Below are positions 15,443 through 26,201 of a stretch of 64,000 nt of DNA, piece by piece. The stretch spans positions 118,944 to 182,943 of the forward strand of contig JAEURZ010000001.1 in the NCBI GenBank assembly GCA_016788905.1. Reading direction: 5' to 3'. Made by a program: the position numbers and the translations under genes. The stretch comes from Elusimicrobiota bacterium (GTDB lineage: Bacteria; Elusimicrobiota; Elusimicrobia; FEN-1173). The stretch's first letter is position 1. Each line of letters begins with the position of its first letter. Under the pieces are notes generated by a model. That model was not told the origin of the DNA and ran no database searches. It saw nothing but the letters and a program-made list of their open reading frames with translations.

Positions 15443-16048
15443 ATGTTTGAATCGTTTGTCAAAGGGTGTTGCGCGGGACTCCTATTTAGTTTACCAGCCG
15501 GTCCGGCGGGGATCTTGGTGCTTCGGTCTTGGATCCGCCATGGTCAGCGCGGAGGCCTCCTGGCGACCGCAGGGATGGCCTTTGCGGAGGGGCTGGTTGC
15601 GGGGGTGGCCGCGTGGGGATTGCATGTGGCCTCCCCAGCGCTTCGGGACACCTCAGGATTTCTGCATGGGGTCGCGGGAGTTCTTCTTGTGGTGACAGGA
15701 ATTGGATTCTTGTTTTTTGAGAAAGACGAAAAACGACTGGGACATGGGGAGCGTCCCACCTGGAGGTTCATATGGCCGGCTGGTCTTGTTTTAACGAACC
15801 CAGGCCTCTGGGCCGCTTATGGTTCTTTGCTCTTGGCCATGAAAACAAGAACCCCCACAATGACGGAAGCCTTGGCCACGGGAGCCGGAGCCGGATTTGG
15901 AGTTATACTTTTTTGGGGCGCCCTGGGATCAAGTGTTCAACATTGGAAAAGGAAAAAGAAATTCAATGAAGCCCACGTGACCCTTGTGGCCGACCGAGCC
16001 ACCGGCTATTTATTGATTGCTCTCGGTTTGGTTGAACTGTGGTTATGA
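15443..16048 (+). CDS. LysE/RhtB-family amino-acid exporter
   Basis: 201 aa with six TM helices. The N-terminal PAGPAGILVL....G...G.....G..FAEG pattern is typical of the LysE family. Confidence 0.6.
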   Translation: MFESFVKGCCAGLLFSLPAGPAGILVLRSWIRHGQRGGLLATAGMAFAEGLVAGVAAWGLHVASPALRDTSGFLHGVAGVLLVVTGIGFLFFEKDEKRLGHGERPTWRFIWPAGLVLTNPGLWAAYGSLLLAMKTRTPTMTEALATGAGAGFGVILFWGALGSSVQHWKRKKKFNEAHVTLVADRATGYLLIALGLVELWL

Positions 16049-16678
16049 GGGGTTCGGCAAATCGAAGAAATCGACGAGGCCTGTTTCTAGGGAATATTCA
16101 GCCCCCACAACGAGTAAATCTTCTTTAAGGATCAGAGATTCCAGAATCGAGGACCCGTGACGCAATTGATTCACGGACGCGCGGACATTGGCCCGAACCG
16201 ATTCACCCACCAACTTTTCCACCGCAAGCCCCTGCCCGATCAGGGAAGCGACCGATGGGCGAACCCGATCGATGATGGAACGCATGTTGCGGGAATGGAT
16301 ATTGTTGGGATCCTTGAAATCGTCGAGGGTGGCCAAGACCGCTCCGCATTGAGAATGCCCCAGAACCACGACCAACCGCGTTCCAAACCGAGCCGCCGCA
16401 AATTCGACGCTCCCCACCTGGGAAGGGGCCACGATGTTTCCGGCCACTCGGATCACGAAGAGATCGCCCAGTCCCTGATCGAACACCAGCTCGGCCGGAA
16501 CCCGAGAATCCGAACACCCCAAAATAATGGCAAAGGGTTCCTGCCCTGAGGTCAGTGCCGCGCGCCGTTCCGGGGTGAGATACGCTCCCCCTTCTTGGGC
16601 ATTGGACATGAACCGTTTGTTCCCCGAACGCAACCGCTCAAGGGCTTCAAGACCAGAGATCATCGTTTCTCCTTTCAT
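16043..16678 (-). CDS. beta-class carbonic anhydrase
   Basis: CSDSRVP...VIRVAGN zinc-ligand motif and HSQCGAV. 211 aa. Confidence 0.85.
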   Translation of the reverse strand: MKGETMISGLEALERLRSGNKRFMSNAQEGGAYLTPERRAALTSGQEPFAIILGCSDSRVPAELVFDQGLGDLFVIRVAGNIVAPSQVGSVEFAAARFGTRLVVVLGHSQCGAVLATLDDFKDPNNIHSRNMRSIIDRVRPSVASLIGQGLAVEKLVGESVRANVRASVNQLRHGSSILESLILKEDLLVVGAEYSLETGLVDFFDLPNPS

Positions 16679-16685
16679 CTAAAGT

Positions 16686-17492
16686 TCACCGTTTTTCTAG
16701 AAAAAACTGATCCACTCTCTCTAAAACGGAGAAGACTTCTTCTTGATTCTTAAGAATGTACTGGGCCTGAGTCCGACCCAGGGGAGCGACTCGAATTGAA
16801 ATTCCTTTCGATCCCACGACGCGAAACATATCTTCATCGGTAAGATCGTCCCCAATGACGATGGGATACGGATGATTCAAATGGCGGCTTAACAGAAGCA
16901 GGGCCTCCCCTTTGTCCCAACCCACACGGGGAACGGCTTCCCATACTTTATGGCCCTGTCGCCAACGGACAGGGAGAGACTGAGATCGTTTTTGAAATTG
17001 CCCCAATAACCGCAACAACCGAGGGACCAACGCCGCGTCCACCTCACGGTAATGAACCGCCACCCCCAACCGTTTTGGCTCAATGCGGACGCCTTTCACG
17101 CTGGAAAAAGCGCGACGGCAATCTTTCACCAACTTGATCACAACAGGTCGAAGGAGGAGCGCTTCCCGATGGTTAAAAACGAACCCGGGTCCTCGAATTT
17201 CCATCCCATGGCTTCCCCCATAGGTCAGACGGGGCACTCCCACACGCTTGCGAATGTCGTCCAAAGATCGCCCACTGATAACGGCCACATGCAGAGGGGA
17301 ATGACGTTTCAACTTTACCAAGAGTTTGTACATCCGTGGTCTCATCTGCGCCGTATCAGGAACCCGCACAAGGGGAGCCAGTGTACCATCGAAATCAAGC
17401 ACCAGCAATACGTTCTTCTCCCTCGCCAAACAACGGGTCAAAACAGGCCAAGAGAGCTTTTTTTTCACAGGGGCGTCAGTTTTTTTCTTCAT
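16686..17492 (-). CDS. otsB: trehalose-6-phosphate phosphatase (HAD superfamily)
   Basis: HAD motif I LLVLDFDGTLAP and a C-terminal GDDLTDEDMF motif. Adjacent to a GT20 trehalose-phosphate synthase. Confidence 0.8.
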   Translation of the reverse strand: MKKKTDAPVKKKLSWPVLTRCLAREKNVLLVLDFDGTLAPLVRVPDTAQMRPRMYKLLVKLKRHSPLHVAVISGRSLDDIRKRVGVPRLTYGGSHGMEIRGPGFVFNHREALLLRPVVIKLVKDCRRAFSSVKGVRIEPKRLGVAVHYREVDAALVPRLLRLLGQFQKRSQSLPVRWRQGHKVWEAVPRVGWDKGEALLLLSRHLNHPYPIVIGDDLTDEDMFRVVGSKGISIRVAPLGRTQAQYILKNQEEVFSVLERVDQFFLEKR

Positions 17493-18805
17493 GACGGATC
17501 CGTCTTTTCCATCGGTTTCTCTTGAAGGATCTCGTCGTATTGCGCCGCCAACGTCTTATAGAGATGTTGCGCCCCAGACAAACGGGCCGTCATGAAAGCG
17601 GCCAAAGAAGCCAACATGATCGGAATCAGAGAGTCATGGGAACCCGTCATTTCAAAAATAATGACAAAAGCGGTGATGGGGGCTTGAATGGCACCGGAGA
17701 GGAAGGCCGCCATTCCCACCACCGCGCATCCCGCGGGCGGACTGTTGAACCAATGACCCAAGATCGCCCCGAAAGCCGAACCCATAGAAAGGGAAGGCGC
17801 GAAAATCCCCCCCGCGGCTCCCGCCAAATAACTCAAGAGAGTCGCGAGCATCTTGGCAGGGAAAAAAACATAGGTCCAGGATCCAAATTGACCTTGAATA
17901 AGACTTTGAGCCGCCCCGTTTCCAGGGCCCAAGACATCGGGGCCCCCAATCGTCGCCATTAAAAGAACCCCAAAGGAGAGCAGAACGGGGATGGCCATCC
18001 AACCCCACCGCCATTGAATCCCCCGAATCAATTTCGTCCCACGCAACAGCAACGTGGAAAAAAGTGCGCCAGCCCCCCCGCACACCACCCCCACCAAAAG
18101 CGCCATAGGAGCTTTCACTGGAGCCAAGACCGCGGCTTTTCCAAAATAGATGTATTCTCCCGTAAGCGATTTAGCGGCAATGGCGGCACAGATGATCCCG
18201 AGCAAAACGTAATCCTTGATACTTGAAAAATAATCCACTGTTAATTCTTCCACCGCAAAAGTCACTCCCGCCAATGGGGCGTTAAAAGCCGCCGCCAACC
18301 CTGCGGCCCCACCCGCCACCACCGCCGAGCGCATGTCAAAGGGAATTCCGGTGAACCGACGCCCCAGAAGCAGGAGGCCCACAAAGAAACATGTAGCCAC
18401 TTGCACAGTGGGCCCCTCTCGCCCCACCGACGCCCCAGCCAAAACCACAATGTACACCGCTAGAATTTTAATGATCAAGGCCAGGGGAGACACCAAGGGG
18501 AAAATCTTTCTTTCCAAATTTTTGGTGAAATGTTGCGCCGCGAAAATCGCCTGGGGAATTCCGGTTCCAGCGGAGAAGGGAGAAATAAACCGGATCAAAC
18601 AGACGGCCCCGATAAATAGAACCGGGGTGGTAATCCAACACCAAAGGCCGACGCTTCGGTAGTCCAGGCGATGGGTATTCATGAACTCAAAACCCCGCAT
18701 GAACAGATAGCACCCAGCGCCCGTCGCCAGGGCCGCGGTTAAGTAAAGGGCGAGCGTCACCACTTGAACTTTACGTCGCTCAAACACCCGTAACAACGTA
18801 AACAT
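17489..18805 (-). CDS. ClC-family chloride channel / H+-Cl- antiporter
   Basis: GREGP selectivity motif (GASVGREGPTVQ), GIFAPSL and GxxxP motifs. The start is set at ATG 18805 (MFTLL...) rather than 18991, which would overlap otsA by about 180 nt. Confidence 0.8.
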   Translation of the reverse strand: MFTLLRVFERRKVQVVTLALYLTAALATGAGCYLFMRGFEFMNTHRLDYRSVGLWCWITTPVLFIGAVCLIRFISPFSAGTGIPQAIFAAQHFTKNLERKIFPLVSPLALIIKILAVYIVVLAGASVGREGPTVQVATCFFVGLLLLGRRFTGIPFDMRSAVVAGGAAGLAAAFNAPLAGVTFAVEELTVDYFSSIKDYVLLGIICAAIAAKSLTGEYIYFGKAAVLAPVKAPMALLVGVVCGGAGALFSTLLLRGTKLIRGIQWRWGWMAIPVLLSFGVLLMATIGGPDVLGPGNGAAQSLIQGQFGSWTYVFFPAKMLATLLSYLAGAAGGIFAPSLSMGSAFGAILGHWFNSPPAGCAVVGMAAFLSGAIQAPITAFVIIFEMTGSHDSLIPIMLASLAAFMTARLSGAQHLYKTLAAQYDEILQEKPMEKTDPS

Positions 18806-18812
18806 CTTCACG

Positions 18813-21065
18813 TTAACCGCGCGGTCCTTCTTGGGACGTCGACACTTGGGCCAATTCCAAAACCAGGTTACCGGCCCAACGATAAATATTGTTTTCACGA
18901 ACGTTTTCCCGCATTCGGCGCATGCGTTCTCGCCGATCGGCCGGGTCGAGATTGAGCCCCGTGTAAATGGCGTCCGCTGTTTGTTCCACATCGTAGGGAT
19001 TGATTAACAAAGCGTCGCGAAGTTCCCGGGAAGCCCCCGCGAACCGTGACAAAATCAGAACACCATCACTGTCGTCCCGAGCCACCACAAACTCCTTGGC
19101 CACCAGGTTCATCCCATCGTGCAAACTGGTCACCAGACACACATCGGCCCGCTTGTAAAAGGGACGGATTTCAGCCGGGTTGTGGTGCCGTTTTAAGAAG
19201 ACAATGGCTTTCCATGACTTGGCCTTAAACTTTAAATTAATACGGTCCGCTTCCTGGTCCACTTCCGCCAAGAAATCCGCGTAACGCTTAATGTGCGTTC
19301 GGCTGGGGGCCCCCAATTGAACCAACGTAAACCGCCCCTGGTAATCCGGGTATTTCTCCAAGAACCGTTCCACCGCACGAAATCGTTCTAGGATCCCTTT
19401 CGTGTAATCCACACGGTCCACCCCGACCGCCAGAAACTCCGCCTTAACACCGAGCTCTTTAAGAAGCTCTTCTTTCCCAGGGACCGGAGCCCCTTTCTTT
19501 GTTTCCGATGGAAAATCGACGCTAATGGGAAAAGGCTTCACCAGGGTCGAGTGGCCACCTTTGTTGATGGTAAAGCGTTCCCATTCGATACGACATTCCA
19601 GCGTACGGTCAACGGTGTCCAGAAAATTATTGGCGTGGAACTGGGTGTGAAAACCAATAAGATCGGCGCCCAACATTCCATAAAGGATTTCTTTCTGCCA
19701 GGGACAGATCCCAAAAGCTTCCGGGTTCGTCCACGGGATATGCCAGAAAAGACCGATCCGCGCGTCGGGACGTTTGTCCTTGATCAAACGGGGCAAAAGA
19801 GCGAAATGGTAATCTTGAAGAAGAACCAGAGGTTCCGTCATGCCTTCGATTTCTTCCAACACATTGGCGGCAAATTTGGCGTTCACCGCGGTGTATTGCT
19901 CCCAATCGGACGGGCGGAAAATCGGTCGCGCGTGGGCAATGTGACACAGGGGCCAGAGCCCTTCGTTTGAGAAACCGAAATAGTAGCCGTTCTCTTCTTC
20001 TTCTGTCAGGGCCACTCGTTTCAGAGTGTAGTGGGGGTCCTCGGGTGGAACGCGAATACGGTTCTTGTCATCCACCACGTCCCAGTCGGCGTCCCCCGAT
20101 CCGTGGGCAATCCACAATCCGTCCGTGGCACGAAGGACGGGGTCCAAAGCGGCCACCAATCCACCGGCAGGAATAATGCATTCTATTTTTCGGCCCCGAT
20201 GCAAATGCATGTAGGGCTCTCGGTTCGACACCACGATGAGGGGCTTTCCCTGCAGACGGTTTTTCATCACCTCTTTTAGTTTTTCAGGAGTCCAAAGAGC
20301 CTCCGATTGATGGCGCAAGCGAGCCTCTTCTTCGGCGGCGGTTCGGGCCCGATTGAGGTGTTGAGCAAACGTACTCACCTCACGGGCAATGGGAGACAGG
20401 GCGTCTTCTTTGGGGACCGAGAGGTTGGACAAATCTTCACCCGCACGAAGACGTTTCATCCAATCGGCCATTCGAGCGATGGGGCCTTGCACACTCCAGC
20501 GAACCACCAAGAGCGTAATCAACGTGATCAAAGCCATTTGAATAAGGACGCGTAAAAAAGCCCGTTTCCAGATGTTGTTCAAATGCGCGGGAATGTGGGC
20601 CGCCTCCTGAACCAGAAGGATAACCCCCTTGTTGTTCTCCGGGTCGCCCAGAGGGTGACCAAAGACGTGCATGCGCACGCCCGCCAACATCTCAAACGTA
20701 CCGGAAGGTTTGGTGGGGAGGTCCTTGACCCCGTGGGGCCGCTCTTTCAAGGGTTCAGACAAGGCCTTTGACACAGCCAGGACGCTCCCGTCCGCACCAT
20801 AGACCGCCGTTCCCTTCACCCGTTCTCGATTGGAAAATTTCTCGACCAACCGGCCCAAGGCCGGGGAGGATCCCCGGGCCAACAAGGATTCCACGTTGTC
20901 CTGAAGACTCTCGCACAAAAGGAGTGCGCGACGGTCCATTTCGGTTTCCAGGCGGGTTCTCTCTTCGATGACTTGGAAACGGGCAAACAGAGCCGCCACA
21001 CCGGCCACAGCCACCACAAGTGAGACAATCAAACGGAAAGTGATTCGCATTTTAGGGGTCCCCAT
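18813..21065 (-). CDS. otsA: alpha,alpha-trehalose-phosphate synthase (GT20) fused to an N-terminal membrane-anchored sensor/HAMP-like region
   Basis: The C-terminal ~480 aa is a GT20 OtsA domain (VVSNREPYMH..., LWIAHGSGDA, HDGMNLVAKEF). The N-terminal ~270 aa carries two TM helices around an extracytoplasmic segment of about 150 aa, followed by a HAMP-like amphipathic segment. Confidence 0.85.
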   Translation of the reverse strand: MGTPKMRITFRLIVSLVVAVAGVAALFARFQVIEERTRLETEMDRRALLLCESLQDNVESLLARGSSPALGRLVEKFSNRERVKGTAVYGADGSVLAVSKALSEPLKERPHGVKDLPTKPSGTFEMLAGVRMHVFGHPLGDPENNKGVILLVQEAAHIPAHLNNIWKRAFLRVLIQMALITLITLLVVRWSVQGPIARMADWMKRLRAGEDLSNLSVPKEDALSPIAREVSTFAQHLNRARTAAEEEARLRHQSEALWTPEKLKEVMKNRLQGKPLIVVSNREPYMHLHRGRKIECIIPAGGLVAALDPVLRATDGLWIAHGSGDADWDVVDDKNRIRVPPEDPHYTLKRVALTEEEENGYYFGFSNEGLWPLCHIAHARPIFRPSDWEQYTAVNAKFAANVLEEIEGMTEPLVLLQDYHFALLPRLIKDKRPDARIGLFWHIPWTNPEAFGICPWQKEILYGMLGADLIGFHTQFHANNFLDTVDRTLECRIEWERFTINKGGHSTLVKPFPISVDFPSETKKGAPVPGKEELLKELGVKAEFLAVGVDRVDYTKGILERFRAVERFLEKYPDYQGRFTLVQLGAPSRTHIKRYADFLAEVDQEADRINLKFKAKSWKAIVFLKRHHNPAEIRPFYKRADVCLVTSLHDGMNLVAKEFVVARDDSDGVLILSRFAGASRELRDALLINPYDVEQTADAIYTGLNLDPADRRERMRRMRENVRENNIYRWAGNLVLELAQVSTSQEGPRG

Positions 21066-21180: not shown

Positions 21181-23022
21181 CTAAACTTTTTTAAGGAGTT
21201 TTAAAAACCCCGCAAGTTTTGAATCTGAGAAAACCATATGAACCAGCACCCCCCCCGCGGGAATCGGCGTATCGGGCTGGGGAAACACCACCTGTCCCTC
21301 CACCAAAGCGTAAAAAGGCCATGTGATTTTTTTCTCGGCCAGGCTCTCTGGAGATAGGGTGAGGGGCGTGTCCACCGACAATCGTTCCAAAGATAGCCTT
21401 TTTTCCTCTAACTCCTCCCAAATGGAAGGCTGATCATCTGCGGGAGGAGACAGCAAGGGTCTCCCCCACGTCGCATCGTACGCCGTGGAATGGACACTTT
21501 CCCAGGTGTCCCCGCCTCCCCACAACCGATACGTGTTGGCTTTGCCAAGAAATCGGGAAAAGGCCTGACACGACAACACGTTGACCTCATGGTTTGACGT
21601 TAAAGCAACCATTCGCCCAATCCCTTTGAAATCCAAAGATTCCAGTCGGCCCGCGTCGAAACCGCTTCCGAGCGAAGCGGAAAACCCTTCTTTACGGGCC
21701 TTCCGACAAAATTGGGGATTTGTATCCACGAAAACAGAGACCACCCCGTCCTTCAGAAGTTCGGCGGCCAAGAGCCTTCCCAAAGGGTTCGCGCCAACAA
21801 TGACAAGATTCTTGCCGGGCTCCTCACGGACGTTCAACAAACGAGCGGCCCAGGGAGAAACCACCGCGTAAAAGACAATGGTCCCCACAATGACGAAAAA
21901 AGCCGCCGGGAGAAAAAAAGTTGTCCCCGGAATATTATGATCCACCAGGGCCACCGCAAACAAAGAAGCCAACGCCGCCGAAACAATTCCTCGAGGCGCC
22001 AATAACGAAATAAAAACCGTTTCCCGCCAGGGCATCCGGCCTCCCCCCCAGGAACTGGCGAGAACAGAAAGAGGGCGAATCAAAAAAATCATGACAACCA
22101 AGAGAACCCCGGATGGCTTCGCCCACAAAACCAAGTCCCCCACGGGAATTCCGCTGGAGAGAAGGATGAAGAGAACCGAAAGGGAAAAGAGGGTGAGCTG
22201 CCTTCCGAACCGAAGTATTTCTTCCTTCCCCGGGAACGCACTGTTCCCCACATAAATACCCGCCACGGTGGCCACCACCAGCCCTGTTTCAGATAAAATC
22301 ACATCGGAAACTCCAAAGAAAAACAAAACCGCCGCCAGCATAAACAACCCGCCGAACTCGTCCCCTTCAAAACGGAGCAACCGACTCTTGCGCAACGAAC
22401 CCGTGATGACCGCGCCTGCCGCCAGTCCCAGAATCGCCCCCAGAACGAGTCGAGCGGCAAAGAGGCCGAGGCCCCCCACCCACCCCACATGGTTTAAGTG
22501 CAAGAGCTCAAACACCACAACGGCCATGACAACCCCCAGGGGGTCAACCAGAATCCCCTCCCATTTGAGTACGTTATGAAGTTGTTCCCGGACTCGAACA
22601 CGCTGGAGAATAGGGCCCACAACGGTGGGCCCGGTGACAATCATGAGGGCACCGAACAGGACCGCCACCCGCCAGGGAGCCCCGATCAACCCATGAACAG
22701 CCAACGTTACCCCGGCCCAAGTCACCAACACCCCCACGCTTAAAAGGTTGCGAACGATCCCAGAAACCTCTCGGAATTGATCTTTTTTTAAGGACGCCCC
22801 CCCCTCAAAGAGGACCAAGGCGGCCAGGAGGGAAATATAGGTCGAGAGATTGGACCGAAACACTTCGGGTTGGACCAGTCCCGCAAAGTGAGGTCCCAGC
22901 CCAATTCCCGCACACAATAAAAAAAGGATGCTGGGAATACGTGTTCGCTGGGCAATCAGCAGGCAAGCCACACCGCCAACAATCATGAACAGAATAGTGA
23001 GGAGGGGCTGGTGAACCATCAT
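21181..23022 (-). CDS. CPA1-family cation/proton antiporter with C-terminal TrkA-N/TrkA-C regulatory domains (NhaP2/CvrA-like)
   Basis: About 400 aa polytopic Na_H exchanger region. A Rossmann GxGxxG (IVGANPLG) and a TrkA-C-like tail follow. Confidence 0.8.
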   Translation of the reverse strand: MMVHQPLLTILFMIVGGVACLLIAQRTRIPSILFLLCAGIGLGPHFAGLVQPEVFRSNLSTYISLLAALVLFEGGASLKKDQFREVSGIVRNLLSVGVLVTWAGVTLAVHGLIGAPWRVAVLFGALMIVTGPTVVGPILQRVRVREQLHNVLKWEGILVDPLGVVMAVVVFELLHLNHVGWVGGLGLFAARLVLGAILGLAAGAVITGSLRKSRLLRFEGDEFGGLFMLAAVLFFFGVSDVILSETGLVVATVAGIYVGNSAFPGKEEILRFGRQLTLFSLSVLFILLSSGIPVGDLVLWAKPSGVLLVVMIFLIRPLSVLASSWGGGRMPWRETVFISLLAPRGIVSAALASLFAVALVDHNIPGTTFFLPAAFFVIVGTIVFYAVVSPWAARLLNVREEPGKNLVIVGANPLGRLLAAELLKDGVVSVFVDTNPQFCRKARKEGFSASLGSGFDAGRLESLDFKGIGRMVALTSNHEVNVLSCQAFSRFLGKANTYRLWGGGDTWESVHSTAYDATWGRPLLSPPADDQPSIWEELEEKRLSLERLSVDTPLTLSPESLAEKKITWPFYALVEGQVVFPQPDTPIPAGGVLVHMVFSDSKLAGFLKLLKKV

Positions 23023-25268: not shown

Positions 25269-26201
25269 TCACTCTTCTATCCGTGAGTTCCATTGGGAAC
25301 CGTTCCTTTTCCAGTAGGGGAGACGTTCGGACTTTTTTAAGAGGCCCTGTTCGCCTTCGCTTGTGGTCCATTTCAGGATCCGGTGTGGAGCAACAGCCTC
25401 CACGTGAAAGGTCCAGGCCGGACCTCCTTCCGTTTCGGCTGTCCAGACTTCGGCGGCAAAAGTGCCGGCGGGAACTTTGATCGATTCGCTCGTTAAACCG
25501 CGGGAGAGCTTGGTGTTTTTCCACACCAGGGGGGTGTGGTTCAACCGGGACGTGACCAAGGAGAGAAGAAGCGGAACGTCACGGGTTTCGCCAGGATTCA
25601 AGCGAGGGTTGGCCCAGCCACGGGCCCAGAGAAAAAGAGCGTCCTCACTGGCTCCCTTTTCCGGAAAAGGGAGCTGGGAATTCCCGTCCGCTTCCCCATC
25701 AAAGTAACTGTGCCACAGCGTGTTCACGGAATCTTTTCGGAACAGGGCTTGCTCATAGACCTGCCCGCACCATTCCTGAGCCGAAAAAGAAATTTTGGCC
25801 GGTGTCCCCGCGGCCTGTTGACCGCGTAATCCTTTTCCCCCAAAGGGTTCCAGCCCCAGAAAAACGCTGGTCATCAAGTTGTAATCGTAAACCCCTGTGG
25901 GGAAATCGCGCACAACGTTAAGCTTCATCACTTGAAACTCGTCAGATTTCGGATTCTTTCCCGGGTCCGCCTTCACCCGCTTCGAATCCGAAAAAGGTTC
26001 CGTCACGAAAATTAAGACGGCCGTTCCTTGACGGAGTTCCCCGTAACGGGGGAACGTGAGCTCATACCCTGACACTTCCGCCTTTCCATCGCCCCAATGG
26101 TCCCAGAAGGTTTTGTCAAAGGGAGCCGCAGGGACCATTGACGCGAGGAACAACGTGGCCCCCAACACCCCACCCCATCGGATCAAGGAAACGTGGGGCA
26201 C
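25269..26201 (-). CDS. hypothetical exported protein
   Basis: Signal peptide (VLGATLFLASMVPAAP). 310 aa. No recognisable family. Confidence 0.5.
   Translation of the reverse strand: MPHVSLIRWGGVLGATLFLASMVPAAPFDKTFWDHWGDGKAEVSGYELTFPRYGELRQGTAVLIFVTEPFSDSKRVKADPGKNPKSDEFQVMKLNVVRDFPTGVYDYNLMTSVFLGLEPFGGKGLRGQQAAGTPAKISFSAQEWCGQVYEQALFRKDSVNTLWHSYFDGEADGNSQLPFPEKGASEDALFLWARGWANPRLNPGETRDVPLLLSLVTSRLNHTPLVWKNTKLSRGLTSESIKVPAGTFAAEVWTAETEGGPAWTFHVEAVAPHRILKWTTSEGEQGLLKKSERLPYWKRNGSQWNSRIEE

Follow-up and report, generated by a model that had tools for sequence, protein, structure and literature searches.

Drying, salt and cold are stresses against which trehalose is one of the main protectants, and the control of bacterial OtsA and OtsB is generally held to be transcriptional or to act through soluble allosteric effectors. 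The described trehalose-6-phosphate (T6P) synthases of the OtsA/Tps1 type (for example those of E. coli, 1GZ5/1UQT; M. thermoresistibile, 5JIJ; and Candida, 5HUT) are soluble, and the known OtsA proteins start within about 15 residues of their SNR motif. We have analysed a stretch of 64,000 nucleotides from an Elusimicrobiota bacterium (the window; contig JAEURZ010000001.1, positions 118,944 to 182,943, assembly GCA_016788905.1) that encodes, on its minus strand at 18813..21050, a protein whose C-terminal part of about 475 amino acids is like these enzymes, sharing the GT-B fold, 30–34% identity, all of the motifs and an otsB gene in the operon, but that carries ahead of this domain some 270 extra N-terminal residues laid out as a two-transmembrane receptor module.

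The order of elements in this module is comparable with the input half of WalK-type sensor histidine kinases, in which a transmembrane helix (TM), a single-Cache (sCache) domain, a second TM and a HAMP domain follow one another; the fusion differs from such kinases in that it lacks PAS, DHp and ATPase domains as well as a phosphorelay, and its output is a glycosyltransferase (GT). HAMP-adenylyl cyclases, such as mycobacterial Rv3645, and Cache/HAMP-GGDEF cyclases likewise join TM and HAMP input to a catalytic domain through a helical linker, the length of which is critical. The fusion follows the same input-linker-enzyme plan within one polypeptide, and the length of its linker is invariant across the family; however, the cyclases make second messengers, whereas the output of the fusion would be a bulk metabolite and compatible-solute precursor with no downstream signalling step. 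LapD combines a degenerate GGDEF-EAL region that binds c-di-GMP with a periplasmic partner, LapG, and neither is found in the fusion system. In the TPSP-GT-MSC system of Thermoproteus tenax, a soluble fusion of T6P synthase and T6P phosphatase (TPS-TPP) is activated by a GT4 complex and a link between trehalose and osmotic stress has been proposed (Zaparty et al., 2013, PMC3634074); a comparable operon was stated to be absent from other archaeal and bacterial TPS/TPP genes and to be unique to Thermoproteales (PMC3634074). The likeness here is that many relatives of the fusion lie beside genes for a TreT-like GT4 and for DUF5752, and a few beside MscS, but the T. tenax protein has no TM, Cache or HAMP module, and in the window TPS and TPP are separate genes unaccompanied by GT4 or DUF5752. 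A T. tenax-type operon, that is a fused TPS-TPP with an adjacent GT4 and mechanosensitive channel (MSC), is not present in the window and the comparison is an analogy only. Full-text literature searching turned up no description of a T6P synthase with a transmembrane, Cache or HAMP region. We conclude that the kind of system, a modular transmembrane receptor, is known, and that a biosynthetic glycosyltransferase as its output is undescribed in the literature searched.

Our preferred reading, which we consider somewhat more probable than not, is that the protein is a receptor-like membrane enzyme in which a cue at an outside sensor regulates T6P synthesis. Residues are numbered here from the first codon of the mechanical open reading frame (ORF), ATG 21065 (18813..21065, minus strand, 750 amino acids), which contains no in-frame stop; our alignments (A1 and A2) and structural models are numbered from Met6 and so run five lower. 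All features of the gene described below lie on the minus strand. The true start is probably ATG 21050, 15 nt downstream of ATG 21065, because 96 of the 120 homologues in an alignment with 119 full-length homologues begin at the position of Met6, and because a 100% identical database protein (P0018, from an Elusimicrobia metagenome-assembled genome, MAG) is 745 amino acids long. A GGGG run is found about 10–13 nt 5' of ATG 21050, and no Shine-Dalgarno-like run lies 5' of ATG 21065. With this start the gene would occupy 18813..21050 and encode 745 amino acids plus a stop codon. Promoter and terminator scans returned matches at chance level and were uninformative.

A sequence-only reading of this DNA had proposed that a single in-frame ORF fuses the N-terminal module to OtsA, and this was borne out. 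We examined 80 loci, the best-matching of 575 confirmed relatives from GTDB species-representative genomes; module and GT20 domain were adjacent and colinear in all 80 and lay in one frame in 79. An exhaustive search of 1.84 billion representative proteins with a profile of the N-terminal module gave 1,147 matches at E<=1e-10, of which 320 reached E<=1e-30. Sixty of the matches listed run more than 40 residues beyond the module, and 52 of them go on into GT20, the other eight being frameshifted fragments with Arg/Ala-rich out-of-frame tails. The same colinear architecture was seen in more than 120 protein clusters, at 59–100% identity. Stand-alone module proteins were considered as a candidate class and rejected: besides the eight matches with out-of-frame tails, the apparent split locus L001:6001-8264, on a long contig, results from a one-base frameshift at the module/GT20 junction, inside the conserved LxGxPLFVVSNREP, and L002:6001-6882 is cut off just past the SNREPYMH motif, on a contig that also has many fragmented genes and a DDE transposase.

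Selection on the gene was assessed by comparison with a 92%-identical sister genome (L088), using the Nei-Gojobori method. The ratio of nonsynonymous to synonymous substitution rates (dN/dS) was 0.059 for the whole N-terminal module, 0.08 for the sensor domain, 0.033 for TM2 with the HAMP-like segment and 0.032 for GT20, and in the linker there were no nonsynonymous and 15 synonymous changes; dS was high (1.0–1.7), which makes these ratios approximate and leaves their direction unambiguous. On the basis of the low dN/dS, we conclude that the entire N-terminal region is, to judge from this comparison, translated in the GT20 frame and under purifying selection. The sequence-only reading had itself pointed to an internal start near 20250 as the finding that would speak against a fusion. 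The codon concerned is Met267 (ATG at 20267), which has an AGAGG run just 5' of it at a spacing of only 2 nt; its position is occupied by Val in 91 of the 120 homologues. A conserved internal start yielding two products was rejected on these grounds, together with the 79 in-frame loci and the purifying selection on the module (dN/dS 0.06).

The C-terminal domain (18816..20240; residues 276–750) was, as had been proposed, a GT20 domain of the OtsA type. Pfam PF00982 matched residues 276–739 with 389.8 bits (cutoff 32.5; E = 2e-116), covering profile positions 3–472 of 473. When PDB sequences were searched with phmmer, the E values were 4e-75 for OtsA of M. thermoresistibile (5jij), about 1e-70 for fungal Tps1 and about 1e-67 for E. 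coli OtsA (1uqt/1gz5). The motifs SNRxP, GGL, LWPL-H, DYH, H-IP, GVDRxDYxKG, PSR and DGMNLVAKE all align with those of the solved OtsA/Tps1 enzymes, and the eight were invariant across 62 family members; we take them to carry the acceptor-binding, donor-binding and catalytic residues, as in E. coli OtsA. The full-length AlphaFold2 (AF2) model was also compared with solved structures using Foldseek, and matched 5jio, 1uqt and 1gz5 at E of about 1e-34 with target-normalised TM-scores of 0.83–0.88, in keeping with the GT-B fold.

The ORF contains exactly two strongly hydrophobic stretches by Kyte-Doolittle analysis, TM1 and TM2. TM1 (20970..21044; residues ~8–32, with 19-residue windows above 1.6) is preceded by a short basic N-terminus, MRITFR; its hydrophobicity is kept in the homologues and it is helical in both AF2 models, full-length and module-only. 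TM2 was placed by hydropathy at 20490..20564 (residues ~168–192). The earlier position of TM1 (~10–32) agrees well with ours, but TM2 had been put at 185–207, about 17 residues too far along; likewise an extracytoplasmic segment is present between the two helices as had been supposed, but it measures about 135 amino acids (33–167) and not about 150. That residues 33–167 (20565..20969) lie outside the cytoplasm is predicted from the flanking TMs, from homology to extracellular sensors and from the need of the enzyme for cytoplasmic substrates.

The outside segment has a long N-terminal helix followed by a central antiparallel beta-sheet, which is the arrangement of the PDC fold. We built a profile (A2) of 29 diverse N-terminal modules and found that it matched, among PDB sequences, the crystallised extracellular domain of WalK (5is1, 4ywz and 7dud) with E values from 3e-5 to 5e-4, the match spanning profile positions 38–162; the top matches of the sensor domain are input sensors of kinases and chemoreceptors. 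Weak Pfam matches of the Cache type were found among the 29 members, with SMP_2 in 21 of them, sCache_3_2 reaching a best E of 2.7e-6, and dCache_1, CHASE8 and Cache_WalK also present. The window protein itself scored 12–14 bits against SMP_2, below the cutoff of 28.9, and precomputed sCache_3_2 (PF17203) matches are on record for several Acidobacteriota homologues. Because of the WalK matches of the profile and the Cache-family matches of its members, we conclude that the segment is probably, by profile comparison, a WalK-like single-Cache/PDC sensor domain. Identity to the WalK sensor is only ~13%, and for this reason the signal need not be that of WalK. In both AF2 models the C-terminal helix of the sensor, TM2 and the first helix of the segment that follows form one continuous helix. 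Two relatives depart from the single-Cache layout: in P0138 (913 amino acids, from the representative search) the sensor domain is tandemly duplicated ahead of TM2, giving a double-Cache-like receptor-OtsA variant, and P0041 (810 amino acids) has a precomputed dCache_3 match.

The segment after TM2 (20331..20489; residues ~193–245) comprises a first helix from Pro195 to Gly209, a connector and a second helix from Glu229. With hhalign, the TM2-linker region of the family was aligned with the HAMP domains of E. coli K-12 Tap, Tar, Tsr, EnvZ, NarX and CpxA, whose boundaries had been confirmed by Pfam, and the match, 46 columns long, had a probability of 65% and an E value of 6e-5, as against E = 0.19 for a reversed control and E = 0.39 for an unrelated segment. 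It can be seen from the register of the alignment that Pro195 falls on the HAMP Pro, Gly209 on the Gly that ends helix 1 and Glu229 on the Glu of helix 2, and these signature residues are kept throughout the family, Pro195 being invariant, Gly209 present in 287 of 295 sequences and Glu229 in 315 of 318. The NCBIfam profiles for WalK, MtrB and CreC align through TM2 and the region following it. In the AF2 secondary structure the helix is unbroken from TM2 to ~207, a loop occupies ~208–223 and a second helix begins at ~224. The Pfam HAMP profile reached E<1 in ten of the 29 family members, with a best E of 0.0026, and the module profile matched no HAMP chains in PDB sequences, returning only spurious lactate dehydrogenase matches. 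We conclude that the segment is best described as divergent HAMP-like, since it misses the curated threshold and yet has the position, the secondary structure and the signature residues of a HAMP domain. The HAMP-like linker of the sequence-only reading was thus correctly located after TM2 and in the right Pro/Gly/Glu register, but a HAMP profile search alone would have left it below the Pfam threshold.

Between this segment and the enzyme lies a conserved helical linker (20241..20330; residues ~246–275; AAEEEARLR...LWTPE(K/R)LKE), which is the best-conserved stretch of the module; A240, A243, E247, W258, T259 and L263 are invariant. Spacing was surveyed in 318 full-length sequences from all phyla sampled. 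We found that Trp258 is separated from SNREP by exactly 22 residues in 316 of the 318, and the helix-2 Glu from Trp258 by exactly 29 residues in 315, so that the distance from Glu229 to SNREP is 51 residues in ~315. The spacing from the helix-1 Pro to the Gly (present in 287 of 295) is 14, and all of the variation in length (19–23 residues) falls within the HAMP connector. The linker ends a few residues short of the SNREP Arg, which presumably binds the phosphate of the acceptor, glucose-6-phosphate (G6P), as in E. coli OtsA. Fixed-length helical linkers are typical where a HAMP domain mechanically drives an output domain. Because the Glu-to-SNREP spacing is invariant, a rigid coupling of signal to enzyme is suggested, and this constancy is the strongest argument that the module regulates the enzyme, beyond anchoring it, although the argument is still indirect.

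The fusion proved to be widespread, a point on which the sequence-only reading had proposed a survey. In a scan of species-representative genomes at least 600 stretches were matched, among them the 575 confirmed relatives, and all of the best 80, which were colinear across phyla, cover module residues 1–285. The family is therefore a large one, with up to 575 candidate loci in species-representative genomes of more than 10 phyla, some of the weaker of which could be ordinary OtsA genes that share SNREPYMH. The best 80 span Elusimicrobiota, Verrucomicrobiota, Acidobacteriota (many), Nitrospirota, Thermodesulfobacteriota, Bacteroidota/Ignavibacteria, Planctomycetota, NC10, Omnitrophota and Eremiobacterota. 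With an Acidobacteriaceae copy as query, more than 120 clusters at >=84% identity were recovered from soil and peat metagenomes. No cultured host was found, the named sources all being MAGs or metagenomes and the best 120 matches of the Acidobacteriaceae query all metagenomic; the architecture is frequent among the uncultured bacteria of soil and groundwater. Database entries are labelled 'trehalose-6-phosphate synthase', occasionally with 'uncharacterized membrane protein affecting hemolysin expression' in addition.

Under the receptor reading, the polypeptide would run from a short cytoplasmic N-terminus through TM1, a periplasmic sensor, TM2, the HAMP-like helix-connector-helix and the linker into a cytoplasmic GT20 domain, and would probably be dimeric. 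A change at the sensor domain, brought about by a bound ligand or by an envelope or osmotic cue, would be carried by TM2 and the HAMP-like bundle to the rigid linker, which ends near the SNR motif. T6P synthesis would thereby be turned on or off post-translationally, and OtsB would then complete the synthesis of trehalose. The term 'one-component signal-regulated osmolyte synthase', used in the sequence-only reading, is derived from architecture; it seems to us a reasonable one, and is strengthened by the invariant linker length.

Several observations weigh against this reading. A dependence of activity on the module is only predicted, and a conserved sensor fold would also suit a module whose role is purely structural or is to bind a partner. 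The Pfam HAMP profile (PF00672) gave only 13.2–15.5 bits on the window protein, for a gathering score of 25, and matched only profile positions 2–28 of 53; the connector exceeds that of the E. coli HAMPs in the hhalign comparison by ~7 residues; and the HAMP region was modelled with low confidence, the predicted local distance difference test (pLDDT) values being 42–60 in the full-length and 54–86 in the module-only model, both of them AF2 monomers. The NCBIfam OtsA model TIGR02400 gave 427 bits and missed its equivalog cutoff of 564.85; because this cutoff was not reached, the exact product of the GT20 domain is inferred, with T6P synthesis as the best-supported activity. Finally, the ion-transport neighbours from which osmosensing had been argued are not conserved across the 80 loci.

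The alternative that survives best is that the module is an anchor or scaffold only, tethering and dimerising OtsA at the inner membrane, close to partners or to the membrane that is protected, and that no transmembrane signal is passed. Partners are indeed frequent. OtsB is encoded near the fusion in 45 of the 80 loci (31 of the 47 flanked by 4 kb or more on each side; directly 3' of the fusion in about half to two thirds of loci), DUF5752 in 43 and a TreT-like GT4 (TreT_GT1 plus Glycos_transf_1) in 46, mostly 3' of the fusion and on the same strand, and in 21 loci the order is fusion, OtsB, DUF5752, TreT-like GT (examples of cluster members are L016:11831-12937, L067:11069-12445 and L070:10346-11152, with others on the P0020 contig and in L090). 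The co-location of DUF5752 and the GT4 fits a scaffold, as does the precedent of T. tenax, where the GT4 activates the TPS domain by complex formation (PMC3634074), and no ligand or signal can be inferred for the sensor domain. On the other hand, a plain anchor needs no folded Cache domain of ~135 amino acids kept under purifying selection, and HAMP signature residues and a linker length held invariant over more than 10 phyla would be superfluous to it. In addition, the window and its sister genome have neither DUF5752 nor the TreT-like GT and yet keep the full module. We regard an anchor without signalling as unlikely, although it deserves serious consideration.

A further possibility, which is orthogonal to the others, is that the architecture is as described but that the GT20 domain makes something else, such as glucosylglycerol phosphate or another NDP-sugar product. 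The missed OtsA cutoff is in its favour, as are a partial match to the GgpS model TIGR02398 (281 bits) and the loci in which OtsB is replaced by a low-molecular-weight (LMW) phosphatase or in which no phosphatase was seen. The OtsA score and that for the TPS/TPP model PRK14501 (476 bits, which also missed its cutoff, 634) are, however, far above that for GgpS; every one of the best solved relatives is a T6P synthase; the phosphatase encoded beside the fusion scores above the equivalog cutoff for T6P phosphatase (T6PP); and in many loci the fusion is found together with trehalose genes of the TreT-like or TreS-like kind. We consider another product improbable.

Marginally less probable again is an inside-out arrangement like that of LapD, in which occupancy of GT20 by UDP-glucose, G6P or T6P would be relayed by the HAMP-like segment to the periplasmic domain, and this domain would then bind or release an envelope partner. 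No conserved gene for a periplasmic partner was found beside the fusion in the 80 loci, the best matches of the sensor are the input sensors noted above, and the retention of all catalytic motifs with OtsB adjacent argues that the enzyme is the selected output. An annotation artefact, with OtsA made from an internal codon and the upstream part a separate small membrane protein or untranslated, is scarcely credible: the AGAGG run before Met267 and the database entries P0007, P0008 and P0010, in which the module stands alone at ~290 amino acids, speak for it, but no stop separates the two parts, the Met267 codon is poorly conserved and badly spaced, the L001 split is a frameshift and the other short entries are truncated or have out-of-frame tails.

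The fusion gene stands among genes for ion transport, all on the minus strand. Upstream are a Na/Ca exchanger (25112-24063), an MscS protein (24002-23100, two genes upstream of the fusion) and, 130 nt from it, an NhaP-type Na+/H+ exchanger with a TrkA_N domain (21181..23022; Pfam Na_H_Exchanger E = 1e-41, TrkA_N 1e-10); directly upstream of this transporter block a 310-amino-acid ORF (25269-26201) had no Pfam match at E<0.01. Downstream is a ClC-family channel or exchanger of 438 amino acids (17489..18805; Pfam Voltage_CLC E = 3e-72). The mechanical ORF for this gene (17489-18991, 500 amino acids) overlaps the 3' end of otsA, but its true start is almost certainly ATG 18805, 7 nt past the otsA stop, because a 438-amino-acid ClC is called 7 nt after the fusion gene in the sister genome. 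The otsB gene follows (16686..17492; Pfam Trehalose_PPase E = 2e-37), its start overlapping the ClC stop by 4 nt; its product scored 149.9 bits against NCBIfam TIGR00685, for which the T6PP equivalog cutoff is 68.05. The last gene of the apparent operon, 7 nt after otsB, encodes a beta-class carbonic anhydrase (16043..16678; Pfam Pro_CA E = 4e-36), which closes the otsA-clc-otsB unit, an order that is kept in the sister genome and in none of the 80 other loci.

The sequence-only reading was therefore right that otsB, a ClC channel and ion genes lie beside the fusion in the window, but the argument from them to osmosensing is weak. NhaP, fusion, ClC, OtsB and carbonic anhydrase are all retained in the sister genome, which is without the MscS and Na/Ca exchanger genes; in the 80 species-level loci ClC was found once, NhaP once, an MscS of the window type twice, the Na/Ca exchanger three times and carbonic anhydrase never. 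A ClC gene between otsA and otsB is a feature of the window's lineage only (1 of 80 other loci). We rejected the ion-homeostasis block as a conserved context of the family, as it is shared only with the 92%-identical sister genome; it is lineage-specific and may matter for the window organism, and is not evidence on the family.

Some variations were noted among the partner genes. A conserved MscS partner, of a family of ~460 amino acids, was considered and rejected, as in a jackhmmer check the conserved part proved to be DUF5752, MscS being present in only 8 of the 80 loci. In L067:11069-12445 and about five other loci an MscS-type channel is fused N-terminally to DUF5752 (MS_channel_2nd plus DUF5752, ~458 amino acids), which suggests that DUF5752 can be the cytoplasmic domain of a mechanosensitive channel. 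An LMW phosphatase gene (LMWPc) lies directly 3' of the fusion in six loci (for example L007:8770-9171 and L090:10268-10669), and at least once, in L090, it occupies the usual place of OtsB; in some loci no phosphatase was seen. In P0125 (894 amino acids) the synthase carries LMWPc as a C-terminal fusion. LMWPc could serve as a T6P phosphatase in its own right, as an alternative to OtsB, or have a regulatory role. In a Verrucomicrobiota locus (L089:10285-15176) the fusion is followed by a 1,148-amino-acid TreS/maltokinase-like protein and then by an MscS-family gene, a further layout in which trehalose metabolism and a channel come together.

We propose, tentatively and with slightly more doubt than confidence, that these proteins make up a widespread and undescribed class of receptor-enzyme, with the window protein as its founding example, in which a Cache sensor, a HAMP-like relay and a 51-residue linker directly gate trehalose synthesis, mostly in company with OtsB, DUF5752 and a TreT-like GT, and allow a response within seconds to drying, salt or envelope stress in Acidobacteriota, Elusimicrobiota, Nitrospirota, Verrucomicrobiota and others. 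DUF5752 was not mentioned in any paper found by full-text literature search, and its recurrence together with TreT-like GT partners provides a first functional handle on this domain. If the proposal is correct, the outputs of Cache/HAMP input modules would be extended to a biosynthetic glycosyltransferase, and a simple system, with signal in and sugar phosphate out, would become available for the study of HAMP-enzyme coupling and possibly for ligand-controlled trehalose engineering. For the bacteria themselves, it would mean that compatible-solute synthesis is under a direct, post-translational transmembrane switch that needs no kinase, second messenger or transcription step, and this could explain fast stress responses in the soil, peat and groundwater communities that are dominated by these mostly uncultured phyla.

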